Program-made: the position numbers and the translations under genes
Assembly: GCA_017499595.2 (NCBI GenBank)
Contig: CM038999.1
Span: forward strand, 3,410,001-3,474,000
Direction of reading: 5' to 3'
From: Psilocybe cubensis
Taxonomy: Eukaryota
DNA length: 64,000 bases
The notes under the pieces: generated by a model
Told to the model about the DNA's origin: nothing
The model's input: only the letters and a program-made list of their open reading frames with translations
Databases searched by the model: none
Part shown: one piece after another, positions 715-63,578 of the stretch
How positions within the stretch are numbered: the first letter of the stretch is position 1
Layout: each line of letters opens with the position of its first letter

Positions 715-1018
715 CACATAAGACAGTTTATTTATAACGTACATTACCTAAGATTTAATAATAAGGATATTACGTGAGACACGGTGGATTTACTCCCGCT
801 ACCTAATTAGGAGATTAGCGTGATGTACGTGTGATTTATCCTGGCAAATCATAGCGTACATGACGTGCCATTTAGCACTAAATGGAGCCGCCGGGTGGCA
901 TGCGGGATCCGCGTGTCGGGCTGCACGGGAAAAACACGGGCCGCAAATGAACCGGACGGGTCCATCTACATCCCGTGTATTGCAAGCAGACGGATCCGTT
1001 TTGACCCGTGTTGTGCTG
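715..1018 (+). repeat. Left terminal inverted repeat (304 bp)
   Basis: CACATAAGACAG...TTGTGCTG is the reverse complement of 15769-16072. One mismatch was seen (895 vs 15892). Confidence 0.95.
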
Positions 1019-1159
1019 AGACGGGTCCATTCATCCACCCGCTTCTGTATTCCGACAAATATCCGCCTTGAAGAATCATACATCGGATGACCGTTAATAT
1101 ATGTAATAAGGTGTATAGATTATACTGGCAGCACATTCCTTTCCACATACCCTGATAGC

Positions 1160-2439
1160 ATGGATTATGCCTTTGAGCTAACCCAATCCCTCTCAAACTA
1201 CATGAAGGCACAAATAGCTAGTCGTCTTTGGCATGCAGAACTGCCTAATCAAATCCGGGAAAACTTCAGTGCTGAGACCATGTTTGAGTGCAATCTAGCT
1301 GTGGAGGTGATTTTGCAGGCATTTGAAAATCAAGGTATGCAATCAATAAGCTTTGAAAATTGAGATTAAATAATGTGTGAATGGCAGAATATACGACGTG
1401 GGATGCAGAAGAATATTTGACTCATCTCAGTGCACGTTGCACGGGTCAGAATTTTACCGTTGAGGCTCGCCTGAAAGACAAGTTTTCTCCAGTGCATTCC
1501 GCGTTACAGTACCAAACCCTGCCCGGAACTGTGGTCGATAGTGCAGGCAACATATTGGTGTAGTACCTGCCAGGTATTTTGTCAGAGACAAGGGTGGTGA
1601 GTTTTAGAAACAGACCAATTAATTCATATATTATGCTTTCTAAAGAGTAACAGGAGAGTGTGTGGAATTCATTACGGGATATTGAAACAATGATTCACAA
1701 GGCGGTACCTTTGGCCACAAGCTGGAGGGTCAATGACAGTTACTTTCAACATGAGCCAGGTTGGGTTCAACCTGGAAATATTAACTTCTCCCCGGCATGG
1801 TTTCAGCAAGGCCATGAGGTGAGAAACTTGTATGCTAATTATTATACTGCCTCATATTTTCCTCAGACGTCCAACCCGCTTGAGGTCTCCTTGGACTTGT
1901 GTAATCCAATTGGACAGGAGTTTATACGAGACACGACGACATCTTCGGCTTTGCTGGGAGCCATCTTGAGCATTATACATCCCGAGCAGTACCGGGCGGG
2001 AATGAAATTTCTTCAACGGCTTGCTGCGGAACCGGAGCTTGTCCATAAGGCTGAAATATTGAAGCAAATTCTCACAATTTGGAGTTCGCCCTTTGGAGTC
2101 ATGACCGTGATCAGCAACCGAGATACACCATACCATCGGGATAATGGGTCGTGCTACTCATGGTACGATTTTTTGATGCCACTTGGGAAGGGTAAACACG
2201 GACGGCTTGAGCTTCCGGGCCTTGGACTTCGGTACAAGTATGATCCCATGACCCTTGTTGCAATTACCGGCAGGTTGCTTCAACACGGCGCGGTGTGCGA
2301 TGGAGACAGGGCAGTCATAGTCTATTACATGCGTAGGACTGTATTTGAAGAGCTGGGAGTCCAAGAGGCGGGATGGTCTACTACGTACGATCTTTTTGCA
2401 AATTTACCGGCCACCAACGCTTTTGATTTTGAAATATGA
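1160..2439 (+). pseudogene. TET/JBP-family 2-oxoglutarate/Fe(II) dioxygenase with an in-frame stop
   Basis: Predicted exons 1160-1334, 1388-1596, 1654-1818 and 1867-2439. HxD motif TPYHRD (2134-2142), distal His in LLQHG, and Arg in DRAVIVYY. TAG at 1561-1563 in GNILV*YLPGIL. Linkage to a KDZ transposase matches known fungal TET/JBP genes. Confidence 0.85.
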
Positions 2440-2533
2440 TCAGTTTTTGACTTGGAAGTTGGGTTTGGGGAAGATTTTTTTATATTTCCAAACCAAAACA
2501 GTACGAAAGCTACAGCACAACCAGAATTCTCTG

Positions 2534-2802
2534 TCCCAGGGTGTTTCCGACGCGTCCGCGCTGAGCTCTTCCAAGGTTACCGGAATCATCGGACTCCGCC
2601 GTCGTATTACCGGCGGAAAAGGCATCATCCGCCTCCTCTTCGATGTCCTGTGCGAGAGGTGGGCAACTAAGATTCCTCATCCCAGGGTGTTTCCGACACG
2701 TCCTCGCTAAGCTCTTCCGAGTTACCGGAAGCATCTGACTCCTCCGTCGTATCACCGGCGGAAGACTCCTCATCCGCCTCCTCTTCAAAGTCCTGTGCGA
2801 GA
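2534..2802. repeat. Imperfect direct duplication (~123 bp x2) of the 3' end of the 4291-2667 gene
   Basis: 2534-2657 and 2680-2802 both read TCCCAGGGTGTTTCCGAC...GTCCTGTGCGAGA, with scattered substitutions and an indel. Confidence 0.85.
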
Positions 2803-4291
2803 TGCTCTAAAAACGTAGCTGGTGTAGAGGATTCAGTGGTATCGGACGTACTATCAATATCATCCTCTTCTCCCGGGAAAACAGGTCTTGACCTTGCGTT
2901 AAAAAGGAAGGCATTGCTGGTGTGTGCATTTGACGGAGGGCTGACGGAACCGGGCGTAGGCAGAGTATCTGTTGGGAGATGAATATTTGCAGTGTTGGAG
3001 GACGGCGAATGATACCAGAGTGGATGAAAAGGTAGTTCCTTGACGGCAATAAAAGAATAAAAAATGTCGTTGATGTAAAATGAAGCGACTTTGAGCTTTG
3101 AGACCTCGAAGGACCGGGCTTGAGCCGTTATAGCGCCCCAACTGTCAGGAGAAGGGTGAACGGGATGCTGAAATTTGTATTTGGCTGAAAGCCCCTTGCC
3201 GTTAGAGAACGGGAGCTCCTTAGAGTCAATCCACATCTTCTCCAATACAGAATATCTGCCCAAGGCAGCCGAAGAAGTAGTCACTGCTTTATGGGCATTC
3301 TTCATTTTGTCCGCCACATTCCGGCGCAGGTGAGCCAACTCCCTCATTACGCCCGTTAGGATAGGCTGACCGCAGCGGGGACAGTAGGGCGGTCTGTGGT
3401 CAGAAATTGCAATTGGGGATGTTTCATCCCGCGTGTTTGCAACACGGGTCGGCGGATTGGGTTTCCCCGTGGGCGGTGAAAACGCGGAGCCGTGCTTTCC
3501 CGTCAACGCGGATCCGTGCTTCCCCGAGGTGGGGACGGATGTCCGTTCAGCCGCCTTTCCCTTGCCCTTGGGATTGTTTTCTTGATTTCTTGGAGGCCCA
3601 GAGGTGGATGAACTTGCGCCCTCCTTAGCTTCTTTCCTCTGATTATTTAGCCGGAGTACCTCTTGTTGGTATTCAGGCAGAACCACCTGGTGGGAAGGAC
3701 GCAAATCAGATATAATCCACAGCAATAAAAAAACATACCTTGTTCCAAAATTCTCTTGCTTGCGATTCAACGGTAACAAAGGCAACTTGCCACTCATCGC
3801 CTTCAGCAAATCCGTCCCTCCACCAATATCCCCAGCTCTTGGTCTGATTTAAAATTTCATCATCTTCCCATGCTGACCAGCTTTGATTTAGAGATTCAAA
3901 TAGAACAGCTCGATGGTGGAGAGTTCGGTTCAAAACGGCATGTACGCTCTGATTGAGAATTTCTGATATAAAAAATGGAATATCGACTTGGAATCCATTG
4001 ACATAGCAGTATCCGAGTACTCTCAGCAGTATAGCCTATCGAGCAGTTCTCAATGCAAGATATAATAGTTCAAAATTACTGTCTTACCACCTCTAGGTCA
4101 AGCAAATACATCCATTTTTGGCGACGCACGGAGGAAACAGAGTCTCCGTTTGCAATGAACAAACGGTATCCGGCACGGATCCGTGCACCACAAATATGGA
4201 CATGAACTTTGGCCAGAGCACGTCGCTCATCATAGGTAAGGAGATGATGTTTGTCCTCGACAGGAGGTTTAAAAAGCCGCGGTAAGTGCAT
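2667..4291 (-). CDS. Transposon cargo protein of unknown function (Trp-rich helical N-terminus, CPRC motif, acidic tail)
   Basis: Three-exon model, approximately 4291-4088, 4035-3739 and 3686-2667, with GT-AG introns and no stop seen. The start codon is uncertain. Confidence 0.65.
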
Positions 4292-4335
4292 GAATTCAAC
4301 AAGATGAGATACAACAAGAATGTTCAAAGAACTGG

Positions 4336-7300
4336 TTAATCTGTAATTATAAATCTCCACACGGACGGATACTCCGGGTTAATTTGACGGAAGACCTTAT
4401 CCGCGGCCCGCCCCAGATCATTCCACATGGCAATCTGCTTTTGAGCATTTGCCCTGTGACCAACTAACCTGTCAGGAACAAAATCATGCCGTGCACGCCA
4501 TGTCTTTGCCATATACACATAAAATCTGACAGTCCATTCCATTTCCTTTTTTGTCAAAGCCAGCTCCTCTTGCCATCTATTTCTCTGAGCTCGCGCGCGG
4601 AGCCAGTTTAGCCTGAAGACTAAGAAACCTTTGAGAAAAAAATTAGAAATACAAATGGCAGTACTCACACTCATTAACGTATAATTGATTATCATTGTCC
4701 AGGCCCTGACGGGATCTCCAAATCCAACTTAGACGGTCCGAGCTTCCTCCGCAAATGTTCGGATCCGACACGGCATTACTATGCTTGCAATCATGGACTT
4801 GCAGAATGGGATATTGTTTCCGAATATTATCCTCGTCTCGCACGCCAGCAGATAAATAGATCATCTTCTGACGGTTTGTGTTGTAGAGTCGCCGGTGCAA
4901 TTTCCAGGAAGCATTCAAAAGCTTGACGCCATCCCAAGCACGAGTCCCCATATAGACGGAGTCGGCGGTCCGAACCTGATATTTATACTGCCAAGAAAGC
5001 TGGATCAAGGCTGACCGGACCGCTTCCAGACAGTCCTCTGCGTGGCCATGTCTTATTTGAAGTTCAAGTTTGCGAAGCCCTTTTAAAATGAGGTTTGTTC
5101 CCGCGTCAAGGCCGTCAAAGAAATCTTGTTTGACGGTGGAGGGAAACGGAAGCGGCTGTCGTTCCGGATCCGCGCGGGTAATGTTGACATTTCCAAGATC
5201 AGGATCGTCGTTGTCACTGACTTCATAGTCAAGTATGGGAGCGATGTCCCCTTGAATATCCTCCAAGACATCTTCGCCCATGAAGGTCATAGCGGATCGA
5301 CAGAAGGCTTCAACGCGGGTCCGCATGGAGCGACGTTTATTGACCAAGTCAAGTTTCTGCGCGGTGGAAGGATGCTTTCCGAGCTTTCTGACATGGTCCC
5401 TGAGCTCCAATCTAAAAACATGTTAAATTCTGTAGGATGCAATTGAAATAATCGTACTGCGCTTGCTCCAGTTTTAAGCCGGATGATATCCATGCTGCCT
5501 TTCCAGTAGCACCATTAGATGTAAGTTCCATATTTGAAAGATGCAATTCAATTTCTTGGCGTCCAGCAGCCGTTTTCACTTTGCTTGCCATTACCTTGCC
5601 AACAGCGTCGGCCACACCTTGTTCTCGGTCCGCTTCTGCTTTTGAAATTTCATCTTCCCAAGTGTTGATGAGCCCGGAATCTTGTTGATCCGTGATACCC
5701 CTATAAAATTGGTCTGTGATTCCAGACTGTTCCCGTGCCCGTTTGAACTTTGCAGCAATTGTTGCAGCCATATTAATGGTCTTCTTCCAGTTGGAATCCC
5801 CCATGTGGTCGTCCAAAACCTCTGCTCGATGGGCAGTGGTAGCGGAACGTGTACTCCGGGATGTGTCATTTAACACGGACCACAACGGCTCCAGGATTTC
5901 TCCGTCAATGATTCCCACACCCGGGACATAGGTGGATGCATAATTGTAAAGACATTCCGTCTTGTGCCCGTGGACGTGAAATAAACCAATTGCAAAAATC
6001 ATTTTAACAGAAGGTGGCCAATGCATTTTTGTGGACTCTGAGAGACGCCTTGCCAAGTTAACGCAATATTGACAGTTTATATCGTAGATTTCCAAATGTT
6101 TTGTGATTCCCTGTGTGTTGGTAGTTTCCCTGGCCTGAGTCAAAGACCAATCCATGTGCATCTGCTTTTCACCTTTGTCAAAATCAACAACGCTGGATGG
6201 ACAGAAGCATCCGTGCCTAGCGCAAGCGTGTGCCCCAATTCCACGTACTCTCTTACCCGGGCTGACTCTGTTTTCAGCTTTCTGGGCGTGGTAGTTATGA
6301 CATGTTTGTTCCTGATATTTTTTGACACGGAAAGTAAGCATCCGCCGTAGAAGATTTTGACACGGAGCGTAAGCATCCGCCGTGAAAGATAAATCATGGT
6401 AGATAACGCACCCGTTTATAACGTGGAGCAAGAGAAATTGCTTCCTTAATGTGCTCCTTGTAAGGGCCCGGAGCAGTCATGTATCCTTCTCCAACGCTCA
6501 ACCAAACATTGTCTCCCTCGTTTTTCTGATTGAGGTGATCTGCTTTGAAATTACCATCTGCAACATAACTACATATGTACAGATTGCTACTTGCTGTTAA
6601 TTGCAGTCACCCTTGAAGAATAACTAAAACTTGCCTATCAGCATCATCAATCCAGGTATCAGGTAGGTTTATTCCAGGCTGTGGACAGGCGGGGCAGAAT
6701 AAGGCCAACTTCCCTCTCCTATCTTCAACTTCGGGATGATCCTCGGTCCGCGTCATTTGTGGTACAGGCGGACCATCTAATCCGCCGTGTCCCAGAGACG
6801 GGTCCGTTGACATTCCGACTTCTTGAGACGGACTATCAGATCCGCCGTCAATTGGATTAGATACATTAATACCCATCCTCTCTGGTGATGAATCATGGCA
6901 ATGACGATAGTAAGGGACCACCACTTCTCTTGTATGCCCTTCTCCGTATTGTCGTCTCAGGACAAGGTCCCTGTATTCTCTACTAAGCCTTCTCAATTCA
7001 CGATAGCGGTTCAGCACCTTTTTTGGAAACGCTGGCGAAGTCAGTCTTCGCAACTTTTGGTAATACTGATAAGCCGACGTTTTGCACTCGAGGTTGTCCA
7101 TCCGAAAGTCCTCAAGGACCTCAACTGTGAACACAGTTTGAACGTTTTCAAAGCTGGCTGCAAATAATCCCATCTCCAGATACTGTAAATCGATAGACGG
7201 AAGGCGGACGGACCGGCATGTGCATGTTCGCACGGGCAGATAATGGACTCTGGAGGTGTGCACAATTGCCTTGAAAGGAATTCCATTGTTGTCTGCTGCC

Positions 7301-8219
7301 TTTGGACGAGGTTGGTCCAGATAGGTTGTATCGACTTCCTCGAATAGATCATCGTCTTCATCGTCTCCATCGTCCAGCTCAACCAAATGGGGTACCTCCG
7401 GGTCCGCCAGAAGCTGAGCCGTAAAGGATTCTTGGTCATTGCTCGCAGGAAGCGGATCCAGGTCCAATCCGTGTTCATCTTCAAAGACGGGCGAATTGTT
7501 TCCGCCGTGCCCATGACTCCCGGATGAATTGTTTCCGCCGTCCCATCCTAGGTGGCTCGGATCCGTGGGATAAGGACAACGTTTCCCATTATGACCCAAA
7601 TACAACTTGACACCCACTTCCCACAGAGCTCCCGGACGGAAATATAGACCCGTCCACTTCTCAACGCGGTGGAAAGGTGTAAATTGATGGTTTCTTCGCA
7701 GGCATTCAGAACACAAAATTCTAGAGCCAAAGCATTGGCAACATCTCCACACTCCAGACATTCCTTGACATTGCTGACACTGTCCATTCAGATCCGGATC
7801 CGGGGCTTCTCCTCCAATCATTGTTCCAAGATACACCTCTCGTTTCGGGAGCCATTCCCTCAGGTAATCATTTTGAGACTGGATAGGTAAAGTCATCCTG
7901 ATCATTCTACTGAAAACATGTTAAAACATACCTTTCCTCCCGTTCTGTCGTCATCTAGCTGTCTCAGGTTATCAAGTACCTGCTGATCAGTTAGATCTCC
8001 CGGATAATGAGGTATTTCTTCTTCCAGAATGTTGTGTTCATGGTTTTGGAAAGAGTAAGTCGTTGTTTGAGGGAGGTTTGTTGATGATGATTCTGCAGGA
8101 AGTTTGTGGATCCTCGGCCGCCCTCTCTTTCGTTTCTTGGCCCCACTAGACCAGGAGGCCTCCCGAACATTGGGAAACTCCTCATCCGATCCCCTATCAG
8201 GTACTTTCTTGAAGCCCAT
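4336..8219 (-). CDS. KDZ-family transposase with an N-terminal Cys cluster and CxC2 domain
   Basis: Six-exon model. Motifs: KRGRPR (AT-hook-like), CQQC/CCQC/CSEC..H, HRVEKWTG, CTC, CPACPQPGINLP, DGNFK, CARHGCF, GEKQ, YDINCQY, HVHGH and DGEILEPLW. One intron needs a GC donor (~6634). No stop or frameshift was seen. Confidence 0.9.
6320..6389. repeat. 35-bp tandem duplication within a transposase intron
   Basis: TTTTGACACGGAAAGTAAGCATCCGCCGTAGAAGA followed by TTTTGACACGGAGCGTAAGCATCCGCCGTGAAAGA, inside intron 6312-6411. Confidence 0.9.
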
Positions 8220-9099
8220 GGATGTTGGAAACAAAGAGTCTGACAGCCTGTGAGTGCAGATCTAAATGTAGTATAACATGTTCATTTCTGTAGATAAATT
8301 TCCCTCAATTATGCCGTTTTAAAGAGGAGAAAAATAGCTTTCATATGACTTATCTTGCAGCATATTTGGATGAGTGAGTGAAATGTTATGAACAAAACTT
8401 AATCCAGAGATGCACAAAATGGACGTGATCCCATCATAAATGTACAATATGATGCAGAACGACCCTTTCAGAACCACACTTTGGAGTGTTTTTGAAATAT
8501 CTTTTCACTGGCTGGCCCCTCATTCCTCCGGCATATATCATATGAAAGATATTTTTAATAGCTACCGAATGACATTTTTTGTAGAATGTGAATCCTTGTA
8601 TTTAAGGAGATATTCTCAATATACTAGAAAATGTGTCAAAATGAGCTCACTGGGATCATTATATTTTTTGAAAAAAAATTATGCATTTGAATACCTCTCA
8701 TGGTCTCTGAGATAACTGCCGTTTTGGGTTTCACAAGTTTTGGGTGAGAAGACGTGAATTTGCATTTTGTGTTTCTGTATCTTTACAGCCATCTGACAAG
8801 AATTTAAAACCTTGTAAAATTATCTTTATATAAAGCGCTAAATGTTTACAAAATTCCATGTTTATTGATTGAATGCAGAGGGAACTATTGCAAAATCATG
8901 AGGTCAATGTATGTGACAGCGACCAGCATGCTTTGATCATCGTGGCCGACGATGAAGCGGGATTACCTGATTGGGAAAAATATGACATCACATCATTTAT
9001 TTAGTATGATCGGAAGCTTATTTTATCTCCGTATGACGTGAGATTTGACCAGATCACACAGATACTCATCGATAAGCTACTTGTTACATCACTGCAATT

Positions 9100-11410
9100 A
9101 TGCCCACCAATGCATCCCCCGACGCGGATCCGCTTCCTTCTACCGCAAATGCCACAACCCACAACGGACCCAGAAACGGACAGACGGCGGAGGGTGACTT
9201 TCCGCCGGAAGAATCAAATATTTGGACAACAAAGGAAATGCGCGTGTTGAAAAAGCATGTACAGCCCTACAAAGATACATCAAAGTCATCCAAAGCAGAC
9301 TACATACAGAACACTGTCATACCTGAGCTGCAAGCTACATGGGATCACAGATACTCTAGACGTGCTAGGAAGGAAGATAAGCAACTACACAAAGAATGGA
9401 AGGTGAAGAAGCATGTGAGCTCGTTGTTTCTTTGAAAATTTTGTTACACACATAAACCATCACAATAGCGAATATTTAATTGGTTTAGAAACCATGCGTC
9501 AAATCGAATTGGTGTAAAATTGGAAGGATTGAACTCCCGTATAACCTTTCAGACGGTATTCCGTGAGGAGAAGTTGGCAGAGATTGACTCCGAGGTTGCG
9601 CTTCTATCAGGGAATGCTGCTCGTGGAAGTAAAGATTGGATGAAGTTTTATCAACAAGGACGTAAGCAGGTTGAGGCCAGATTGACTCAGGAGGAGCGGG
9701 ACAGGTTCATGGAGATCCTCGAGGAATGGAATAAGAAAGGTGTTTCAAAATCAATGAAGGCAAAGTGAGTCGGTGGAACTTGTTTCCGCCGTCAATCTGA
9801 CATCTGCAGGACTGCTGCCAGGCAAGGCAGAAAAATACTTTGACAAATGGAGAAACTTAAGTGGCAGAGAATGGGTATGAGGTCCATTACCTTTGAGGGG
9901 CATTATGATATTGAGGGTAAAATCGAATACTCAATGTAAGTGTTAAACACGGCATGAACAAGTTCCGCCGTGAATGCTTACGGCGGAAACTTTATCCGCC
10001 GTAAACACCCTACGGCGGATAAAGTTTCCGCCGTAAGCATTCGCGGCGGAATAATTTGGCCCGTATTAATGTTGACTGATGGGCATTGAAGGACCCAGAC
10101 AAGCGATCTAGCACTCGACGATGTCAGAATTCCTTCCTTTGGGCAACTCTTTCCATCCGAGTTGGCCGCTTTTCGCAGAGCGTTTGTTCAATACCTCGTC
10201 CACATTTCAGAAATAGAGAAGGGTGTGGCCAATCCAGCACTGCCAGATGCATCGTTTCATGAAAAATCCCTCAAGTTTAGCAGCAATGGATTTCCAATAG
10301 TACCTAGTCCTATCTATGGCTCAACTGGGAAAGAAGTCGCTTATGCACAAAAGTCAATTATTAGAATTTACATGAACAAGGTTTATGGTGTGTAATTTGT
10401 CTATGTCCTCAACAAACTTGCTAACTATGTATACAGCTTTAGCCAAGGACAGGCCTGGTTCAAGTGTTCCTTGGGATGCTCTTGAAAGGCGTTCTGCAGA
10501 AATGATTGATCCAGAGTATTGGCCAAGTTCAATCCCCGTGACGGATCCAAGCCGGCTCCGCCTGGAGTCAACCTCTGCAATTCTCAAGCTATGGAGGGAC
10601 CGTCAAGCCCAAGGAGACATCCCCTTTAAATTTTCAAAGGTTTTTGGAAATGGCTATGATATTATGGAACCTCTCTATCCGTCCAACTTGTTTGACGGCC
10701 TAGAAGCCCACCCGATACCTCCACCTCCTGCAGCAATAACCAAACGTTGCCTGAGGCAAAAAGCTATACGACTTCAAACCCAATCTTCAAGCAACTCTGA
10801 ATCATCCAATCTGTCAGAGTTTGATAATGGACGGGGCAGTCCGGCATCCGCGATGCCACGCACTACTGCCAGATTTGAAGTCACACCAGAGACGGATGAG
10901 ACTCCTACCGACGCACCTTCAAGATCTAGCGAGCCACCCTCTCTACCAAGTAGATCCAGCCCAACAATTGTCAATCCATCATCCAGCCCAACTCCAGAGG
11001 TTGAGGAGGCGCCTCCCAAGCCAGCTAGAAAGATTATGCCAAGAAAAAGAACAAAGCCATATGTCGGAACGGCGGAAATGGACGGACCCGATGAAGAGAG
11101 TTCTGTACCGGCCCCAGTTAAGCCAAAACCAACTAGAAGGATTCAACCTAGGAAAAAAACAAAGCCCTACTCAGATCCACTTGACACAGTGGAAGAAAGT
11201 GGAGTTCAGACAGGAACAACCCAAGACACGGATAATACACGGGCCGGCAGGGACGTGACTTGTGATGCCTTTGTGGAGACAGTAACAAGTCCAGATACGG
11301 ATGAAACACGGGCCCGCAGGAATGTGACTTCGGATGCCTTAGCACTTCAGGAAGCAAGTCTGCTTGTTGTAGCAGGTAAAAGACAAAGAAAAAAAACTTT
11401 GAAAGCCTAG
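9100..11410 (+). pseudogene. Transposon cargo gene, probable nuclear helical/DNA-binding protein, with an in-frame stop
   Basis: Predicted exons 9100-9414, 9469-9764, 9810-9935, 10092-10387 and 10437-11410. Contains RIFNWFRNH and a basic C-terminus (KRQRKK). TGA at 9841-9843 in RKIL*QMEK. Confidence 0.7.
9963..10051. repeat. Nested inverted repeat: 41-bp arms with a 7-nt loop, inside an intron
   Basis: 9963-10003 and 10011-10051 are reverse complements with one mismatch. They lie in intron 9936-10091. Confidence 0.95.
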
Positions 11411-11674
11411 CTGCTGAAGTAGATTCATAATACCTATTGAATGTGATGCTTTTCATTCTTATCTTGATGTTTCTCAAACATGTTTTCACACAAAATCAAA
11501 ACAGAAAGCGGGTTCATTAAAAATCATCAAGTGCTACTTTTTGGGAGAGATATAAAACAGATGAGCACATGAGAGTAAAAACTATATACAGTCCAAATAT
11601 TAAAAATTGTACAATGCAATCTATGAGACAAGGCAAAAAAGGAGACCAAAAAAAGTTACAAGATTTGAAATACA

Positions 11675-14193
11675 CTACTTTTTTTGGGCCTTGGGTTTTT
11701 TGGGTGAGCGCGATGCTTCAGCCAGAGTCGTTTCCGCCTTTCGCTTCCGTCCAGCCCTTGTCTTTGTGGCTATGTTCGACGCGGGCAGCGTGGACGCCAC
11801 AATCTCAACATCCTCCTCCACAATTTCAACCTCGTCGCTGTCCGAGGGATCAGACAACTCCGATGAGTGTCCATTCCCGGATGGCCCAGCCTTGGAGGAT
11901 GGCTTAGCCTTTGACAATGGCTTAGCCTTTGAGGATGGGCCGGCCTTTGACGATGACGATGGCGCGGCCTTTGACGATGGTGCACCCTTTGACAACGGTG
12001 CGGCCTTTGACGTCGAACTTCGAGGACGTGGAGCTGGGAGAGGGGGTGGTGGAGACAGGGAAAGGACGGGTGGTACCGGTGGGAGCGAGGGTCGGCCAGC
12101 TGGGGGGGGCGAAGGCGCTTCTGGAGTCGAACCGGGCAAGAATAGCGCTGTTGGTGGCGCAGACACGGCAGGGAAGACGGGTGCGGGTGGAGGTGGGGGT
12201 GGGGAAGGGAGGACAGGTGCTGGCGGTGGTGGAGGAGGGGAAGGGAGAATGGGTGCTGCTGGAGGTGGAGGTAGGGAAGGGAGGGGTGCTGGCGGTGGTG
12301 GTGGGCTGGGGGATTGTGGCGCAGAGGTGGGTTCACGGGTCCGCGACGGACCCGATTCTTGTTCGACCTCCGTCTTGGAGGGTTCTGCTGCCTGTTTGGG
12401 GGCGGGATTCCTTTGTTCATCCTGCTCCAGCAAAACCCCGACCACGTACTGAACGTCCTGGATCGCCTGCTTGATGTTGTTGAACATCGTGACGGAAAGC
12501 GAAGTGTTTCCTGCCACTTGTTCTATTGCCGTGGTCCACTCGGCCTTCAGCTCTTGGAAGCTGTCCTCGACGGTCTTCATCCTCTTCTCCACCGCCAAGT
12601 TTGTCTCGGCGAACGTTGCAATCCGTGCGTTTATCGCCGTCATGGACGCGGAAAGGCCATCCATCCGTTCCATCAGTCGGCCTTGTCGCTCAAACAGCTG
12701 CACAAGCAGCTCTCCCACATCCTCGGGGAACGACCCTTCCCCGGCCTTCCCCTTCGCCGGAACATCCTCTCCCTCCTCCAACTTCAACACCTCCCCGTAA
12801 CTTCCCAGCGGCGTCGAGAGGTTGAATTGCCCGGCGACAGTGTTGCGTCCCGGGTAGAAACGTCCCGGGTAGAAACTGCAGTGAATCTTGCGAGACTTGC
12901 AAGACTCGCAAGATTGGTGCTTTACGGGGACGAGAGGCTCAGTGCCTGTCTCTCCCTTGACATGGCACGGCACCTTGAATTTGGTGCATCCTGTGCACCT
13001 TTCCACCATATCCACCATCCCCTCCGGCACCTGGCGCGCTTTCTCGGATCTCGACCGCGCCTTCCTGATGGGGGAGATATTGTCCTGGTTGGCGTCCTTC
13101 TTTGCAGACCGGGTGAGCATCTTCCGGGTGGGGGTGGTAGGCGGGGCCTCTTGGTCATCGCCTTCGTCGTCCTCGTCGACGTCGGCGTCCGCGTCTTCGT
13201 CCGTGTGGCTTCCTATGATTGCTTTGCTCCTGAACTTCCCCTGCTTGGACTTCGCCAATCTTTCCAGCTTCTCCCTGTACGCTGGGTGACCAGGCATGTT
13301 GGAGGCGGTGATGTGGGGAATGATTTCCCCCTTCTTTGTCCGTGGGCCCCTGTAGTCCGCTGGAGCTAACTGAATGGTGGGCGTCTGTCACGGGTCCGTC
13401 TTCTACCGGGGGTTCGACTGCCTTGCCCTTGCCCTTCTCGGCCCGTCTCTTCTCCGTCTCCTCCTTGTTCCTCTCCTCGTCTGTCTCCTGCTCCTGCTCC
13501 TGCTCCCTCTTCCTCCTCTCCTCCGCCTTCTGCCTCTCCTGCTCCCTGGTCTTCCTCTCCTGCTCCCTCTTCCTCCTCTCCTCCTTCCTCCTCTCCTCCA
13601 CCTTCTGCTTCTCTTCCTCCCTCTTCCTCCTCTCCTCCTCCCTCTGCCTCTCCTCCTCCTCCTCCCTCTGCCTCTCCTCTTCCTCCTCCCTCTTCTTCTT
13701 CTCCTCCCTCTTCCTCCTCTCCTCCACCCTCTGCCTCTCCTCCTCCTCTTGCTCCTCCTTCTCCCTCCTCTTCTCTTGCTCTTCCTCCTCCCTCCTCTTC
13801 CTCTGTGCCTCCTGGCCTTGCTGGTATGCCTTGAAATTTGCGACTTGATGATGCAAATTTGCCCAGTCGACCTCGAACCTTCCTACCTGCTTGCCGTCCT
13901 TGCCCTGGCTGGTCTTGTATGAATACACGACAGGGCTTGCGACATAATCCACGAGGCGGAAGTTGGCCGCGTCCCTGACGTGTTCTTGACACAGTGGAAC
14001 CTATTTGGATGAATTTTTTTTGTTCAGTAAGTCTTATGCTCAAGGGATATCGATTACTCACCAAGTCCCTGTAGAGCTGCTCCAACTGAGCGTTGAACGC
14101 GCTTTCGCCATTGCGGTAGCACTCTGTAAAGGTTTTTTCCCAGTCAGCAAGGCGTTGGGCGAAGGTGGCGGTGGTGGAAGATGAAGAGGCCAT
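11675..14193 (-). CDS. Transposon cargo protein with an E/R/K-rich helix, Zn2Cys6-type cluster, coiled coil, Pro-rich region and NLS-like tail
   Basis: C-x2-C-x6-C-x18-C-x2-C-x6-C at 12997-12878. Intron ~14061-14001. The junction at ~13406-13370 needs a short 37-nt intron or else is a frameshift. Ends PKKPKAQKK. Confidence 0.75.
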
Positions 14194-14676
14194 TGGGAAA
14201 GCGTTTTTTTTGGGGGGGAAGACGCGTTAATGGGTGAGGCACGGTAGAACGTGGGGTGGTGATCGTGGTTGGAGTTAGTCTAAAAAAAGTCTAAAAAAAA
14301 GCGGTCCCGCAAAACAAAACCATACACAAACATGTACAATCTGAGTCATGTGATTTCTTCACCAGATCCAGTTTGTGCAAAAGTTGCTAAGTTCGATACA
14401 CGGGTGAATCTATTTCCGTGTCATGGAGAATCCTCGGATAGTATTGTATTCCGTGAGATATATAAACAAGCCCACCCAGTTGCACTTTCTGGACTGTATG
14501 TCCTCCTACAACTTTATTCCCACCTCTAGCAAAAATTCCCCCATTGACTACACCAGTCTCAACAATCTTACCAGGCTTCTCAAAAAACTGAAGGAACCTC
14601 CTCCCGTAAAACCTATAAAATGTAAGACTAATTGCATTAATTCAAGTAAATTTAAATTGATTTCTGAGCATCAGCA

Positions 14677-15675
14677 ATGTCTTCAAATATTAGCAACTCT
14701 AAGGAAAGCAAACGCACAGCAAGGACGGATGACCTGGCTCCGCCGCCAATGCCAGTCATTCCAGATAACCTGGCTCCACCCCCTATGCCTGTTATTCCAG
14801 CTAACCTGGCTCCTCCCCCTATGCCAGTCATTTCATCTAACCTGGCTCCGCCCCCTATGCCAGTCATCCGGAAAGACCTGGCTCCGCCGCCAATGCCAGT
14901 AATTCCAGCTAACCTGGCTCCACCCCCTATGCCTGTTATTCCAGCTAACCTGGCTCCGCCCCCTATGCCAGTCATCCGGAAAGACCTGGCTCCGCCGCCA
15001 ATGCCAGTAATTCCAGCTAGCCTGGCTCCACCCCCTATGCCAGTCATTCCACCTACCCTGGATCCTCCCCCTATGCCTGTTATTCCAGATACCCTGGATC
15101 CTCCACCTATGCCTGTCATCCGGGATGATGCGGCTCCGCCGTTGATGGCAGCACATGTTTCATACACGTCTGTCGTCGACAAAATCATTATGGACTCTCG
15201 TCCAGCTATTTCCTCTGAGAGGAAGCAAGGTCGCTATTCTCCACCCCCTGAAGCATGCCACCTGCTCCTTCAAAACCCTTATTTTTGAACCTACGGCAGG
15301 TTTGATCCCATGGGCGGCTACCCCGGTTCGCCTCCCACCCAGTCTGACATTGAGTTCGAGAATGTAACAGATCAGACGGCGTATTTTAACCCTCCTTTTC
15401 TATATGTATATACTCAGATATTACCAAGCACTAGATACTGACAACTATTTTAGAATTATACCGAGCAGCAGCTACGGGCAACATACGACCAAATAATTGA
15501 CAGTTCCGTCGGCGACAGTAGTTATGACGGAAAGGTTACAACGTTCAAGAACCTCCGGCTGCATCAGCTGCAGTCAGAGATTCTGACTTATAATGCGCTG
15601 GAGGAAATTGACGCTGGGCTGGCAGGGATTGAATCGAGTTTGGAAAAGCATTTGTATACCGGTAGAGATGAATAA
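14677..15675 (+). pseudogene. Transposon cargo gene for a proline-repeat protein, with an in-frame stop
   Basis: TGA at 15286-15288 (NPYF*TYGRFDP). The frame stays open beyond it, through an intron ~15406-15452, to TAA at 15673-15675. Confidence 0.65.
14731..15126 (+). repeat. Coding minisatellite, 11 x 36 bp (xLAPPPMPVIxx)
   Basis: Eleven 12-aa units counted in ORF 14677..15288. Confidence 0.95.
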
Positions 15676-15768
15676 ATTATTTTTGGAGCCCTTGTGCTCA
15701 TTGACTTGCAATACACCATAAATAACCCTCCCTCTCTGGAAAGACACGGGTCAAATGGGTCTGTCTGA

Positions 15769-16072
15769 CAGCACAACACGGGTCAAAACGGATCCGTCTG
15801 CTTGCAATACACGGGATGTAGATGGACCCGTCCGGTTCATTTGCGGCCCGTGTTTTTCCCGTGCAGCCCGACACGCGGATCCCGCATGCCATCCGGCGGC
15901 TCCATTTAGTGCTAAATGGCACGTCATGTACGCTATGATTTGCCAGGATAAATCACACGTACATCACGCTAATCTCCTAATTAGGTAGCGGGAGTAAATC
16001 CACCGTGTCTCACGTAATATCCTTATTATTAAATCTTAGGTAATGTACGTTATAAATAAACTGTCTTATGTG
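15769..16072 (-). repeat. Right terminal inverted repeat (304 bp)
   Basis: Reverse complement of 715-1018. Ends CTGTCTTATGTG and is followed by CAACGTT. Confidence 0.95.
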
Positions 16073-16079
16073 CAACGTT

Positions 16080-17326: not shown

Positions 17327-18298
17327 CTACACCTTTGTCACCTCCTCCGTATGTTCCCAAAGTTTCTGCCGCAGCTCATCATTGCCATAATATCCCGTCT
17401 TCCCAATATCCTCGCCTTTTTTACCTATCCTTGAGGTACCATTGAGAAGGCCAGACCATAGGTATTCTGCACATTGATTTTGGGTCACAGTGAACGGTTT
17501 TGCGATGAGGTTGGCCACAGGTGCAACAGCTCGTAGCCATGGCATATGTGCTGAGCTCATGATATTGGTGAGCACAGCACCAGGGAATGAATGGGAGAAA
17601 ATGATCCCAGGATTTTGCTGTTGGAAGGACTGAAAAAAGAGGCAGGTTAATTTGGGCATTTTTTAACAGGCACTGTAGGGGTTCACCTCCACCATCAAAT
17701 CGTTGTACGTTGTTGCCGCTTCGGTAGCAGTGCGGAAAGAATAACCTTTCTTCAACCCAAGATTATTAGATTCAATCTTGCCGCCGCGACCAGCAGCCAA
17801 CACGGACATAACCCTTGCATCTTCTCCCTCCTCATTTGCCTTCTTCAAAGCATAAAGTAACTCGTCAATAAATTTCCATCGAGCATAGTAATGCACTGCG
17901 AGCGTCTTGTCAATTCCCTCCAATGTCTCATCCCGTCCTGAAGTAGAGAAAAAGCCAGGACTCAGAATGAGAAAATTGATCTTGGGGTATTTCTCCAAAA
18001 TTGTCTGAGACGCTATGTGAACATTCTTCATGAGAGTCACATCGCAGTGGACAAATTTGTGGCTCCATGTCTCAGAGCCGGTGGCTTTGGGGAAATGAGA
18101 TATGATATCCTTTGCTGCGGCTTCATTGCGTCCAACAATAACGATATGAGCCTTGCCATCTCTCCACCGTGCAAATGTTTCGGCCATTCCCTGCCCAATT
18201 CCAGAGGTTCCACCAATGAACACTGCGACTGGAGTCCCAAAGAGTTTTTCCACGATGGCTGCATTGTTGTTATCCAAGGCGGCAAGTACAGGAGCCAT
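17327..18298 (-). CDS. Short-chain dehydrogenase/reductase-like NAD(P)-binding protein (copy 1)
   Basis: AVFIGGTSGIG Rossmann motif, ETLEGIDKTLAVHYYARW. Exons 18298-17687 and 17629-17327. Confidence 0.9.
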
Positions 18299-30302: not shown

Positions 30303-31281
30303 ATGGTTCCTCATCTTTCTGCTATTGCTCAAAGCAATGCTGCTCTTGTTGGAGGTCTTAAAGGCGCTCCAGTGGCTGTTTTTCTTGGAGGAACATCTGG
30401 CATTGGTCAAGGGCTTGCGGAAACTTTCGCACGGTGGCGCAACGGCAATGCGCACATTATCATTCTTGGACGGAACGAGGCCGCTGCACGAGATATCATT
30501 GCCCATTTCCCCAAGCCCACCGCTTCTGGGGCTTCATGGAGCCACGAATTCATCCAATGCGACGCGACCCTTATGAAGAACGTTCGCGCTGCTGCTGAGA
30601 AAATACTCTCTAAACATCCCAAAGTCAATTACCTCGTCATGACCCCGGGATATTTCTCGACATCTGGAAGAGATGAGACGTCAGAAGGGATCGACAAGAA
30701 GCTTGCAGTGCATTACTACTCTAGGTGGAGGCTTACATATGATCTCCTACCTGCATTGAAGAAGGCCAAAGAGGAGGGAGAACACGTGAGAGTGCTTTCA
30801 GTGTATTCCACAGGCTATGGAGGGCCAATCAATGAGGATGATTTTGGGCTGAAGAAAACATTCTCGATGAAAAATGCCTTGGAGTCAGCTGCAACATACA
30901 ATGACTTAATGGTGGAGGTACGAACTATTTCCTCTTATTTCTCCCCCTTTTTTTAATGAACGTTCCTAGGCATTCCATGAACGAAACCCTGGCATCGTCT
31001 TCTCTCATGCATTTCCTGGCGGCGTCTCCACCAATCTCATGAGCTCAGCACGTACCCCTTGGATGCGGGCTGTTGCGCCTGTTGTGAACACTCTCACCAA
31101 ACCGTTCCTCGTTACCCAAGATCAATGTGCTGAGTATCTATGGTCAGGCCTTCTCAATACGAATATTGGTGCGTATAGAATGGGGAGAAGGGGAGAAAAT
31201 CTTGGGAAGCAAGGATATCACGGGAACGAAAAATTGAGGCAGAAGCTTTGGGAGCATTCAAAGGATGCCACTGATGTATGA
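30303..31281 (+). CDS. SDR-like NAD(P)-binding protein (copy 2)
   Basis: AVFLGGTSGIG. Paralogous to 17327-18298, with the same intron position after YNDLMVE. Confidence 0.9.
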
Positions 31282-31703
31282 TAATACGTACCAGTATTCG
31301 TTATCCTTGAAGTCGATAATACCAGGATTCTCCATGAGAGCCACCAAGCGGCCCTTTGACAAATTTAGGAAAACATACTATACCTCATAAGTAGGACTTG
31401 CTTCGTCTTATCTTCCCTTTCGTCTTTGGTTTCACATCTCTCGTAGGGTGCGCTATGGGCTCGCACGTATGGCTTGAATGAATGAAGGTCGTTATCCTGT
31501 TCATGTTTGATGTATCATTGTCTCATGAAATGCCGGATGCACTCGTGCGTCAAAGCAGTTCCTTCGAGCTACAGACGATATAAGGGAATTGTGAAGGACA
31601 TCTTGAGCCCATTCGTTTCAAATCTTACGATTGATGCCGGCAGTGATTCCAAGTCGTGATGAAAATAGTAGAGTCCGGACTACTATTAGTATCCAATTTA
31701 GCA

Positions 31704-31917
31704 GGGGCTTTTTCACACGCCTTGCCATTGTCTTCACAGAAATCAAGTGCAATGCCCGAACCCATTTCTGGCCTATCTCCATGCGCTTTTGTCTTCCATA
31801 TCGCCCATTACAAGCCTTCAATGGAAATGATGGGCCATACGCGTATGTCCTGACTATATATTTCTTAGAAATCCTTTCCTGATTCGTCTTGGAATTCTCA
31901 ACCACTTTTTCAAGTTC
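31704..31917 (+). repeat. Dispersed non-coding repeat, with an inverted copy at 59930-60094
   Basis: Shares ...TTTTGTCTTCCATATCGCCCATTA...GTCCTGACTATATATTTCTT...TTTTTCAAGTTC with the reverse complement of the second copy. Confidence 0.85.
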
Positions 31918-34990: not shown

Positions 34991-37820
34991 TCAAAGTCCA
35001 TTCCATTTGGAGCGCTTTGTTAGGTGATTCCCAAGATAAAGTAAGTCAAAATCGCCATCTGGGTGCCCGCGTTTGACCCTAGTTGGTCCCTCAAATCGAG
35101 TACCACCCTCTTGACTTGGCTGAACCGGTGTTGCAGCTGGTGAGATGGAACATTCTTGCTGCATGTGAGTTTCAATGGCAGTGCCCATAAATGGCGGCAC
35201 TGTTGTCTCGGTTTCTACAGTTAACAGAGAATTTTGAGGTTCCTCTTCACGGTAAGATCGTCTGGAATAAGAGGAATTTCACGCCAGTCGGATGTTGAAA
35301 TGAGCTGGATGCCCATGAAGAATAGTCGAAACAATCGATGAAACTTCACGTAGGCCGCTGGAGCAAAATGTCGACGAAGGCTGACACGGTCAAAGTAGGC
35401 AGTGTGCATTATAAGCCTTACTTTTTCCATAGGTTTCGCAAATTCGGATATGTCTTTGTGAAATGAGACCGATATGGCTTGATTGATTGGGTAACAGAAA
35501 CAATGGGCTCGTTCCTCGGTGAGGTCTTCAACGTTTTGAAAGATTGGCCTTGCCCATGCATGGGACGATTTGCAATCAATTCGGCAGGCCATTGTCCACA
35601 GAAGTAGCCACCAAATCGATTCTAGGTCATGCTGGAAGTTGTGGGCAACAACTTCCCTATTTACACCAACTATCATCTCTGACACTGGTGCAAAAGGATT
35701 TGTTGATTCATCCGATGTCACTGATCTTGCTTCAGTCGCAACTGGTTGGAATATATAACTCCTCCCAAGGACTTCATGTGCCATAAAGTAAGGTGTACCC
35801 TGTTGATTCATATCTCAATAATGGCGACAAAATCAAGCCAAGAAATATACCGTTTTAGGGTCACTGGCGCCTTTATAGCCGTCTGGAGGCGGAAATTTCT
35901 TTGCATATTCAAGGTCTGAAAGTTTTGCCTGCCAGTTCAACATGGTGCCATCGGAGACGGCTTCAGTACTCTTATAGGCTAAAATATTCCCAGAGCTTAT
36001 ATCACGGTGGACCCAACCGGCACATAACATGAGTTGTAGCGCTACATAATGACCATAATTGAGAGCATTTCGCAAATAACTCAGTGGAAAAACTTACGGA
36101 TTAGGACTTGCTGAAGTACGTCAACGACTTCACCCAGCTTGCCTAGATTTCCTACGGGGGTACATATTTCTCGGAATACCACGCGGTACCGCTTCTTTGG
36201 CATGTACCTACGTGGTGCAACAGGCTTTGAGTTTGCAAGTTGTCCTCTGGCCTTGGTCATTGGACGTGTCGTGCCAGCAGATCTTAGGGAGCTTCTTGGA
36301 GTAGGGCTTTTGCGAGCAGAATCGGGTACCGGACCAGAATTGGAAAATGCAGGGGGTAGGGGGGTGGCAGGAGCAGGAGCAGTAAGCAAACCCCTTACAG
36401 GGACGGCCTTAGGAGCTACGTCATGCAAAGCTGGACTGGCATAATCGGTTTCAATACTAAGGAAAAAGTCTTTGTACCGTTTACTTTTGACTAGATCGGA
36501 ATGAAGAGACCTAAAAAAGTTAATGTCGTCCTCGTCGCCAGGTACCGTCGGTGTGGCTGGTTCCTCTTTCCAAAATGCCTCGATATCGTCAAAAAGTGCT
36601 TGTTGAATTTGGCCTTCAGTCTGTTCTGTAGAATCAATCCAAACGTCCTTCAAAACACACCGCTTGGGAGGATTAGTACTAAGGTCTTCGGCGAGATAAA
36701 TTCGAGTCATTCTTCCAGTGCTGTTATTGGAATTGTAGACGCTAATAGGGCTGATCGTTCGGAAGAAGCGACTCGGGGCATTTACTTGAGGTATTTCGAA
36801 CGTGTAATTTGAGTCTGCCTCCCGTGTAATTAGGGGGTCATAGCCAAGACCCTCCTCGGTTGCAAATAAGATGGACAAGAAGACCTTGATAAGCTTCTTT
36901 GGTTTCTGCAATTGATTTAGAATAGGTAGTTGACAACGGAAATAGAAGAAAACCCACATAGACAAAACTAAATGATTTCGATATGGCAGAATGAGACCGC
37001 GAATGAAACCAAAGAGTAACTTCGTCTCGTTCAATGGTTATCTATGAGCAGGTATATGAGAATACTTCTTCGACATAGAGAGCCACCTACCCCAAAAGTA
37101 AACATACGACGAACATCATCGTTCATAATACGCACATTGGCTGAAACTACTTTGGTGTTGCTCTAAATGATTGAAGTGTTAGAATAGATTTAACATTCAT
37201 GAAAATGGGCATACATCGTATCTCTGAGCAGGGTCAACCTTATGCTCCATTGGAACTGCCATCGCATAGGTGTTCAATATCTTCGATTCGGACGAAAAGG
37301 TGTCCGCAGTGAAGCATGCGTCAATTTTATGAGTAGACTTGGCGATAGAGGCGTACGGAGTGTGCTTATAGTGAAACCTGTTTCGAGTTCTACCGGGATA
37401 CTCAAATTTAGCGATGGATGCACTAATTTTTTCCAAATTTCTGTACGTCTTCATCTCTGATTGTGAGCCGTCCGGTGGAGAGAGATAGAGCATGAAGCGG
37501 GTCGTGTCACCAGTCCCAACCACCATGCTATCTGGCCGAAGGCACTGAGATATGCAGCTGGAAACATCTGCTTCTGACGGCACAAAAGGCAGGTATGAGC
37601 TCATGAATTGATCGAGGTCGCAAACTATAAATTCGCGCTCCATTTCGTGGGCGATTTGGGGGCGTACTGTAGGGATGTTGATGATACCCGCGTCAGATCT
37701 TGGGAAGCGAGCCGTGTCTGAGTGGCTTTGCGAACAATGGGTCAGAAAAACGGACAGAATTCAAAGGGGGAGTTCGATGGGGCACATGCATTCGGGGCTT
37801 GGTCTGGCTGCAATGGACAT
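34991..37820 (-). CDS. Fungal-specific FunK1-type protein kinase (copy 1)
   Basis: VLKDVW, WVHRDISSGN, LSDLEYAK, GTPYFM and QHDLESIWW. Multi-exon, with approximate start and end. Confidence 0.88.
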
Positions 37821-38139
37821 AAAGTTGAAAGCAAGTCGAAACAATTTAGCTAGACCGTGACGTTAAGGGATTGTGTTGAAATGTGAGTTCTTTACCTAGA
37901 ATATACTTTGTCTGTCTTCGGAATAAGTGACTTTGATAAAAAGTTATTACTAAACTGAATGTACCTTCACAGTAGCGCGATTTACAGGTTTAGAGACAAG
38001 TTCGTAATTTCCAATCCGAGTCGCAACCGCGTTAGTGAACCTACATGTGATGGTGCCATCATTTCCCACGAGCTAACCATTGTCTTCACGCTTGTACTTA
38101 TTTCTCGCAATCAAGGCCATCCCTATGATAGAACAGGGT

Positions 38140-38225
38140 GACAGTACAATGTTCCTTGAAAACGACACGGTATTGCTGTTTCTGTGTTTTTGTAAATAAT
38201 TGCGGGGAGGCGGATCTGGAATTGG
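38140..38225 (-). pseudogene. Short FunK1 kinase relic
   Basis: QKQQYRVVFKEHCT resembles KKRYRVVFREICT (copy 1) and QKKQYRVVFKEVCK (copy 2). Confidence 0.55.
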
Positions 38226-59929: not shown

Positions 59930-60094
59930 GAACTTGAAAAAGTGTTTGAGAATTCCAAGACGAATCAAGAAGGGATTTCAAAGAAATATATAGTCAGGAC
60001 ATAAGCGTATGGCCCACCATTTCCATTGAAGGCTTGTACTTAATGGGCGATATGGAAGACAAAAGCGCAATGGCAAGCCGTGTGAAAAACCCCC
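59930..60094 (-). repeat. Inverted copy of the repeat at 31704-31917
   Basis: Reverse-complement match that lacks an ~50-nt internal segment present in the left copy. Confidence 0.85.
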
Positions 60095-60352
60095 GAATTG
60101 ATGACGCCCTCACGTGCTGTTGAATGGGCCGCGGTCGCGATCGGAAATAATGGTGGTTTGTGCACAGACACCTTCACTTCCGTATACTTCATAAGAATGA
60201 CTGACAAACAATCAACTAGGTAGATCATTTGTCATTTTGCTTGTTCTAATTTCTTACTTTATCATCATTTTGCTCAGTGAACCGCAAACCCTTCAGGCCG
60301 TGTACGTCACGCTGGCAGAGGTGCCGACTGCCGCTTTTGTGTGTATTGATAC

Positions 60353-63300: not shown

Positions 63301-63383
63301 AACGGGAGCTGTCAGAGGATGAATTGACGCCTGCTCGACGTGCAGGCCCGTCCAAACGCTCAAAACGAGGCAATGCTGATTGA
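60353..63383 (+). pseudogene. FunK1-type protein kinase (copy 2) with a frameshift
   Basis: WVHRDISCGN, LSDLEYAK and QHDLESLWW. The frame changes at ~61283 between ILFATDE and LGYDPLV (copy 1 reads ILFATEEGLGYDPL). The start is uncertain. Confidence 0.82.
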
Positions 63384-63578
63384 TGTACCCTGTTATCTAC
63401 TTACTATGATGTTGATGTCTTCAGTTTTTCAATGTGGCATTCAAGGGAGATAGGGAAATGCTAGGATAATTGAATCGAAGTAAATAAGGCCTGCAGGCAC
63501 GGCATACACGCAGTATCATAGTGTCTCAATTAAAGCTATACAAAAATCATATCGATATACATTAATTTCTACGTACAA

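Follow-up and report, generated by a model that had tools for sequence, protein, structure and literature searches.

TET genes of fungi are known to ride on transposons, and no explanation of how the TETs would favor their own copies was found in the part of the literature covered here. The closest described carriers are the TET-positive Kyakuja (KDZ) transposons of Agaricomycetes (Kojima 2025, PMC12730594). We analyzed an element of this type, called family A, in a 64,000-nucleotide stretch of Psilocybe cubensis DNA (GenBank assembly GCA_017499595.2, contig CM038999.1, positions 3,410,001 to 3,474,000; hereafter the window), together with a hairpin that lies in an intron of one of its cargo genes.

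715..16072, no strand assigned: DNA transposon of the Kyakuja (KDZ) type with a TET/JBP gene, family A; length 15,358 bp, CA..TG ends

Family A has the marks of Kyakuja, namely a KDZ transposase with a CxC cluster (CxC2-KDZ), CA..TG termini and a 7-bp target duplication. It also shares with these elements a TET similar to CcTET, and its end sequence resembles that of Kyakuja-1_AuPo. Its terminal inverted repeats measure 304-318 nt across copies, whereas Kyakuja-1_LB and Kyakuja-2_LB, two Laccaria families only, were described without terminal inverted repeats. The main text of Kojima 2025 (PMC12730594), as far as accessible, does not contain the words zinc, hairpin or accessory and describes no internal site grammar.

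Two plant systems are also comparable. VANC of the Arabidopsis elements VANDAL21 and VANDAL6 (Hosaka et al. 2017, PMC5735166) is an element-encoded reader of dense, family-specific short motifs that are piled up in introns by gain and loss of repeats. Family A likewise carries a dense family-specific motif whose number varies in introns (four versus two dyads in one, three versus two units in another), and the reader that it encodes is a candidate only. The VANC motifs are single 8-9-mers in one orientation and mainly non-coding, whereas those of family A are inverted bipartite dyads that occupy exons too. In addition, the protein fold is a different one, and family A brings its own dioxygenase. 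Binding and demethylation have been shown for VANC and are hypothetical for family A. Spm TnpA (bioRxiv 10.64898/2026.08.24.746577) is another element-encoded accessory protein with clustered family-specific motifs and a link to active demethylation. It differs in that both its motifs and the demethylation are found only at the termini, it has a helix-turn-helix as its domain, and host glycosylases carry out the demethylation.

Family A contains an array of CGG...CCG dyads that is unstable, has family-specific spacing, shows a deficit of inherited losses and travels together with a gene for a six-cysteine protein. We propose, with a probability of about 55% for the reading as a whole, that the hairpin is a by-product of the amplification of DNA binding sites that would be read by the element's own zinc-cluster protein. 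As a structure the hairpin is ordinary, an unstable palindrome; what it exposes is a site system with a named candidate reader.

A long palindrome in a cargo-gene intron

The hairpin lies within a single intron.

9936..10091, + strand: intron, GT..AG; length 156 nt (20 copies) or 93-94 nt (4 copies)
9963..10003, + strand: left arm of the palindrome, 41 nt
10004..10010, + strand: loop, 7 nt; reverse-complemented in 5 of 20 long copies
10011..10051, + strand: right arm of the palindrome; base 10043 is G in 8 of the 20 long copies and A, which makes the pairing perfect, in the other 12

The original prediction, made from the letters of the window, had described 41-bp arms with one mismatch capable of G-U pairing, a 7-nt loop, five exact and one variant motif copies, and an intron enlarged to 156 nt next to neighbors of about 50 nt. 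All of this was confirmed. The arms are 98% complementary, the sole mismatch, T9971/G10043, forms a U-G pair in the RNA fold, and the neighboring introns measure about 45-50 nt. Exact copies of TCCGCCGT/ACGGCGGA start at 9964 (+), 9980 (-), 9995 (+), 10012 (-) and 10027 (+), and the variant is located at 10043. In the whole window this 8-mer occurs 16 times against 1.37 expected, every time inside 715-16072.

The predicted intron is supported by the reading frame, which is continuous across it, and by GT..AG at the same position in relatives, that is, in a sister family (family B) and in 4 of 4 metagenome loci examined. In the latter the intron is about 50 nt long by eye and the hairpin is absent. 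A piece from run X17, guessed to be RNA, crosses an intron unspliced, and pieces from runs X10 and X11 end short of the hairpin; these pieces are uninformative on splicing and on the ancestral form.

The RNA fold of the intron reached -94.7 kcal/mol (z -13.3), and none of 200 shuffles was equally stable. The arms had also been thought able to fold either as one long stem or as several short ones. Three short hairpins gave -43.1 kcal/mol as RNA versus -80.7 for the long stem (about 37 worse) and were 25 kcal/mol worse as DNA, so that the long stem dominates and the short hairpins were rejected as the main fold. A search of Rfam with the hairpin returned four matches, all below the gathering score, and membership in an Rfam RNA family was therefore rejected.

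The hairpin is unstable and dispensable

A genome search with the intron region recovered 24 copies, all within copies of this element, and a free miniature element was thus rejected (24/24). Twenty copies have the long form and four the short one. In the short forms, 63 nt are missing between direct repeats, and this occurred in two ways: the left sub-hairpin is kept in two copies and the right one in two others. The two short copies of the first kind have long-form flanking haplotypes and are nested among long copies, which marks them as derived deletions. Both deletions recur in DNA run X19 (139 and 127 reads at a flanking depth of about 500, to which library artefacts may add), and the loop is flipped in 16 of 76 reads of that run, a fraction that library artefacts may inflate. 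A cruciform, one of the roles originally suggested, is thus reflected in instability at the DNA level (loop flips and 63-nt deletions) and not in a function.

Among the 20 long copies, the stem is perfect in 11, and C-to-T at 10000 is found in one. Both arm changes seen in these copies leave U-G pairs on the transcribed strand, and no compensatory pair, with both sides changed, was found among them. Private changes in the hairpin numbered 1 against 4.1 expected (P 0.09), so that the long copies are not freely decaying, even though the long hairpin is missing from 4 of 24 copies and from relatives. Conservation of the hairpin among long copies is slight at most, and repair of one arm from the other would give an equal result. 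Because it is lost in 4 of 24 copies, shows no compensatory change and is absent in relatives, the hairpin is not a conserved RNA device. It is real, unstable and dispensable. Taken alone it carries little weight: it clearly illustrates that a palindrome can become perfect with no selection acting on RNA structure.

Two observations concern other variants of the element. In run X19, 27 reads diverge at 9941 and run on in another intron sequence that likewise contains a CGG...CCG pair; they may represent a third subfamily outside the 24 matches of the genome. Copies c017, c019 and s025 have a divergent tract in common at about 8330-8600, which shows recombination or conversion among copies.

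The motif copies are halves of CGG...CCG dyads

The six motif copies turned out to be halves of four CGG...CCG dyads, with the two outer half-sites lying outside the hairpin.

9950..9970, no strand assigned: dyad 1, CGG-N12/15-CCG; left half-site outside the hairpin; kept in short forms
9981..10001, no strand assigned: dyad 2, CGGCGG-N9-CCGCCG; lost with the 63-nt deletion
10013..10033, no strand assigned: dyad 3, CGGCGG-N9-CCGCCG; lost with the 63-nt deletion
10044..10063, no strand assigned: dyad 4, CGGCGG-N11-CCG; right half-site outside the hairpin; position kept in short forms

Their starts are 31, 32 and 31 bp apart, about three helical turns. The long intron thus holds four dyads and the short form two, and in 3 of the 4 short copies the left half of dyad 4 has a CpG change. 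The site is bipartite, with the 8-mer as its strong half: CGGCGGA occurs 24 times in the element, mostly with CCG 9-12 bases past CGGCGG.

When CGG-Nk-CCG pairs were counted by spacing, the count peaked at k 11-15, with a second peak at k 1-2. Excluding the hairpin, family A has 89 CGG-N11-15-CCG pairs versus about 20 expected from the local density, and family B, which is about 67% alike, has 109 versus about 17. The other 48 kb of the window contain 29 versus 33 expected. Everted pairs at k 11-15 amounted to 38 in A and 27 in B. None of 200 triplet-preserving shuffles reached the dyad count of either family; since this shuffle over-creates CGG (119 in the background versus 29 observed), it serves as a conservative control only. 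In an unbiased scan of trimer pairs, the dyad came out on top in B; in A it ranked third, and the two entries ahead of it were overlapping forms of the same dyad. As a separate observation, CGG-N1-CCG and CGG-N2-CCG exceed the expectation of about 4 each, with 11 and 23 pairs in family A and 9 and 14 in family B; this excess may point to a second binding mode.

The sites are written differently in the two families. ACGGCGGA is present 16 times in A and is absent from B, whereas CGGCGGCA is absent from A and present 11 times in B, and the base preceding CGG is biased to A in family A (77/176) and to T in family B (82/201). Dyad density is 9.7 per kb outside coding sequence and 5.4 per kb within it (62 of 99 dyads are coding), and dyads are densest in the terminal repeats and the hairpin intron, with 7, 8 and 6 per 500 nt. 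At the position of the hairpin intron, family B has two dyads in series and no long palindrome; the array is therefore common to both families and the hairpin is not. The multivalent protein-binding platform originally proposed for the hairpin thus stands in a changed form: the unit would be a dyad in duplex DNA, repeated over the whole element, and the hairpin would not be needed.

The number of sites also changes elsewhere in family A. A transposase intron at about 6310-6411 (- strand) has 2 tandem site units in the subfamily of the window and 3 in most other copies. Just past the cysteine cluster described below, a 15-nt in-frame duplication at 12846-12875 creates a new CGG-N11-CCG dyad in the subfamily of the window; it is present in 8 copies and absent from 13.

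Inherited losses of dyads are in deficit

Selection was examined in nine segments of the element, about 13.9 kb, aligned across up to 22 young copies. Silent CpG transitions shared by at least two copies, that is, changes that passed through transposition or conversion, affected 4 of 174 dyad-site bases versus 37 of 296 other CpG bases (p 7e-5). The ratio of shared to private changes also differed between dyads and other CpG (p 0.005). Judged from these counts and from the excess of one orientation and spacing, the dyads have probably been selected as protein docks in duplex DNA.

A candidate reader encoded by the element

Family A encodes a protein that is a candidate reader of such sites.

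11675..14193, - strand: gene for an 838-aa protein with an E/K/R-rich coil, a six-cysteine cluster and a predicted coiled coil; candidate dyad reader
12878..12997, - strand: C-x2-C-x6-C-x18-C-x2-C-x6-C cluster, Zn2Cys6-like, halves apparently in swapped order

In family B, cluster and long helix are arranged alike. A profile search gave 16 hits, and all six cysteines are kept in 6 of 6 full-length homologues aligned from other fungi; they are invariant in 16 of 16 aligned sequences, which were picked by that pattern. The Pfam family Zn_clus matched 8 of 12 members. Searching with the cluster profile found Leu3, Lac9, Pho7, Ppr1, Gal4 and AlcR (9 of 10 hits, the best being Leu3 at E 8e-4). The halves of the cluster align to Leu3 in swapped order, and the canonical order was not found. 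In fold searches, Zn2Cys6 proteins made up 22 of 23 among the Foldseek matches listed and 7 of 7 VIA matches at Z of at least 2. A 74-residue helix is predicted past the cluster, mostly at pLDDT 77-90, and a homodimer prediction in which the alignment was not used scored 0.09. A profile including the coiled coil found no Zn2Cys6 structure by sequence, and a protein atlas search with the cluster region found only unnamed clusters. No plant transposon family appeared among the Pfam hits of the 12 members or of the element's open reading frames (ORFs), and homology to VANC or TnpA was thus not found.

The site recognized by Gal4 itself is CGG-N11-CCG. Zn2Cys6 proteins typically bind CGG pairs as dimers via a downstream coiled coil (PMC6265462). 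Like Gal4, Leu3, Put3 and Hap1, the candidate has six cysteines, arranged as two C-x2-C-x6-C halves, together with a predicted coiled coil downstream and CGG pairs nearby, and, as read by eye, a lysine equivalent to Lys18 of Gal4 is present in both halves in families A and B. It differs from this class in the swapped order relative to Leu3, the spacing range of 11-15 and the middle loop, which is 18-23 residues long (in soil relatives about 14). It seems somewhat more probable than otherwise that the dyads are read by a dimer of the Zn2Cys6-like coiled-coil protein that the element itself encodes. By title and abstract, no zinc-cluster reader was found in the literature on KDZ or other fungal transposons; Iyer et al. 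2014, not covered by that search, may name the domain and reportedly gave the first description of these gene neighborhoods. In the accessible text of PMC8889193, the terms KDZ and CGG are both absent.

Site grammar in relatives and at other KDZ loci

A scan of soil metagenomes yielded 17 loci that belong to about five families, and at several of them the neighboring genes are the same. These relatives have no dyad peak at 11-15. CGG-N3-CCG is instead in excess in L110 (17 versus 1.5), L113 (9 versus 1.2) and L119 (8 versus 1.0), with smaller counts in L120 (4 versus 1.2) and L124 (2 versus 0.5), and three host flanks of these elements contain 0, 1 and 0 such pairs. CCGCGG occurs 7, 5, 8, 10 and 6 times in L110, L113, L119, L120 and L124, respectively, against about 1 expected. 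Under a stricter triplet-preserving shuffle, the N3 excess of L110 stayed clear. Beside one metagenome element, the stretch L115:2715-8815 is rich in CGGAATCCG and GCCACGTCA repeats and is possibly another motif-coded element.

In the P. cubensis genome, the top dispersed 7-mer holds CGG or CCG at 4 of the 5 KDZ loci that have a six-cysteine gene and at none of the 5 that lack one, in a comparison where one background window was topped by a CCG-repeat word and a split six-cysteine gene could be missed. Similar six-cysteine genes lie at four other KDZ loci (L096:5540, L097:4023 and 7188, L100:2818 and L107:6183), three of which have CGG-containing words of their own (CCCGAC, CCGACG and CTCGGCA). 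At 10 other KDZ or TET loci sampled, CGG-N11-15-CCG was not enriched, and the 11-15 spacing is therefore not general to KDZ.

Proposed origin and function

We consider it likely that the palindrome was made by local duplication and template switching, that the loop flips arose by the same process, and that the deletions arose by slippage. A row of inverted dyads would already be quasi-palindromic. A two-dyad unit would have been duplicated locally (the opening 7-mer of the intron, at 9944, is found again at 10002), and template switching would then have turned one half into a perfect inverted copy of the other while also yielding the loop flips. Slippage between direct repeats of 8-9 nt would account for the two 63-nt deletions. 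A loop inverted in place between perfect arms has been described as a mark that template switching leaves behind (PMC8794818), and the hairpins and loop microinversions described there resemble the present one in their perfect arms, the 7-nt loop inverted in place and the lack of stepwise compensation. They differ in being RNA genes, whereas here a row of DNA sites in a transposon intron is affected, with recurrent deletion.

Dimers of the cluster protein would dock on the duplex dyads, four in the long form of the intron and two in the short one, and docking would lead to family-specific activation or anti-silencing. Given the analogy with VANC (PMC5735166) and TnpA (bioRxiv 10.64898/2026.08.24.746577) and the TET gene next door, we tentatively suggest such a role, which possibly brings the element's TET to its own copies, although we put it at somewhat below even odds. 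A more far-reaching version, a fungal KDZ lineage with a self-contained reader-eraser pair, in which a swapped-half Zn2Cys6-like reader of family-spaced dyads in introns and exons brings the element's own TET to its own copies, is speculative and on the unlikely side. The hairpin would then be a snapshot of site arrays doubling and collapsing. If true, fungi would have in this system an equivalent of VANC and TnpA that is based on a transcription-factor fold, and it would also provide an example from nature of a zinc cluster whose spacing rule shifts between transposon families. The named candidate reader and the defined site make the question of TET self-targeting testable.

Several results weigh against this reading of the hairpin and its sites. 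Regarding the origin, the two remaining short copies are the most diverged of all and need not derive from the long form, and the tandem duplication rests on a loose alignment. In the selection analysis, private silent CpG transitions were equal, 6.2 per 1000 cells in the sites and 7.0 elsewhere (p 0.7). The sites are therefore not locally shielded from deamination, and local shielding from CpG decay was rejected. Lone CGG triplets are also somewhat conserved (8/139 silent, an intermediate value), dyads compared with placebo plus lone CGG gave only p 0.07, the shared changes are unpolarised, and the copies are mosaics. As to the reader, Zn_clus scored below the cut-off for the protein of the window (15.9 bits versus 21, E 0.014), and each fold or profile score is weak on its own: Foldseek gave an E of 0.12 or worse, VIA did not exceed Z 3.8, and the pLDDT of the model was 61. 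Gal4-type dimers have a fixed spacing, and the dyad range of 11-15, five steps, is looser. Finally, the stricter shuffle abolished the N3 excess in L120 (150/200) and left it modest in L113 (4/200) and L119 (9/200), a CGG word is missing at a locus that carries two six-cysteine genes, and in the 7-mer comparison the windows were hand-chosen and the loci are not independent.

Alternative explanations

The dyads could be docks for another protein, either the CxC2-KDZ transposase or a different cargo product acting in end recognition, assembly of the transposition complex or transposase-driven activation, with the zinc-cluster gene being incidental. Transposases can be sequence-specific activators (bioRxiv 10.64898/2026.08.24.746577), the dyads are densest in the terminal repeats and the hairpin intron, and three other cargo genes have no family assignment. 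We nevertheless regard this as unlikely: the sites span all 15 kb, exons included (62/99 dyads), the top 7-mer contains no CGG word at 5 of 5 KDZ loci lacking a six-cysteine gene, and it is CGG pairs that Zn2Cys6 domains are known to target. Nor do we find it easy to believe that nothing reads hairpin and dyads and that both arose neutrally, when local duplication and template switching acted on a young element that recombines. Site units do come and go by tandem duplication, as in the transposase intron (2 versus 3 units) and the 15-nt exon duplication; private CpG loss is not reduced, and dyads differ from other CGG only at p 0.07. Neutrality is made quite improbable by an excess specific in orientation and spacing in two families only about 67% alike, by the different spacing in distant relatives, by the deficit of inherited silent losses and by the co-occurrence with the six-cysteine gene.

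The remaining explanations assign a function to the hairpin itself. The spliced-out intron might be a hairpin RNA that is cut into small RNAs, or the long stem might tune splicing of the cargo gene. A 41-bp stem satisfies the substrate length requirement of Dicer, this one is perfect in 11 of 20 long copies with a z of -13.3, and both arm changes keep U-G pairs on the transcribed strand. Yet C-to-T decay yields U-G pairs without selection, no compensatory change or Rfam family at gathering score was found, and the stem has been lost from 4 of the 24 copies and is not found in relatives. The small RNAs had been suggested to match every motif copy in the element; elsewhere in the element, the longest exact match is 11 nt and the best 21-mer matches at 16 of 21 positions, and small RNAs from the stem would therefore hit only this intron. 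An RNA function is accordingly very unlikely, and a functional cruciform or an inserted miniature element is scarcely credible. The DNA does fold at -54 kcal/mol, and the flips and deletions show that structure formation or template switching takes place in vivo. The palindrome is dispensable, however, all 24 genomic matches of the intron lie inside copies of this element, the sequence is built from the element's own sites, and no flanking duplication of the insertion type was seen.

Architecture of the host element

The terminal repeats and the other genes of family A are as follows.

715..1018, + strand: left terminal inverted repeat, 304 nt, dyad-rich (CGG...CCG), 100% complementary to 15769-16072
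1160..2439, + strand: TET/JBP dioxygenase gene, spliced, HxD motif; PF12851 E 2e-18, CcTET 7VPN E 4.8e-24
2667..4291, - strand: conserved cargo gene, no Pfam family
4339..8222, - strand: CxC2-KDZ transposase gene, spliced, exon model; PF18758 E 1.2e-37, PF18803 E 2.1e-20
9100..11410, + strand: cargo gene holding the hairpin intron, kept in relatives, no Pfam family
14678..15675, + strand: cargo gene with a 36-nt repeat array, several units of which bear a dyad
15769..16072, - strand: right terminal inverted repeat, partner of 715-1018

The first 500 nt of the element contain 7 dyad starts. Its 7-bp target duplication is found at 708-714 and 16073-16079, and 12 other copies with both ends found also have 7-bp duplications of their own; family A has therefore moved recently. 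A Pfam search of the ORFs identified the domains Tet_JBP, KDZ and CxC2, and the alignment to 7VPN contains the triad of AG-type TET/JBP proteins (HRD and a downstream H). The same search, made on single exons, left the three cargo genes besides the cluster gene without a family assignment and did not support an HMG-like assignment of the gene at 9100..11410. A protein atlas search with a cargo exon found only unnamed clusters, and database homologues of the element's proteins are labelled as Psilocybe cubensis hypothetical proteins.

The window copy has a private stop in the gene at 9100..11410, with T at 9841 where 22 of 23 aligned copies have C, and a second stop at about 15286, within the last gene. 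Elsewhere in the window, long inverted and direct matches (70-94%) at 30535-31917, 35840-38184, 59930-63910 and 17441-18069 suggest an older repeat family.

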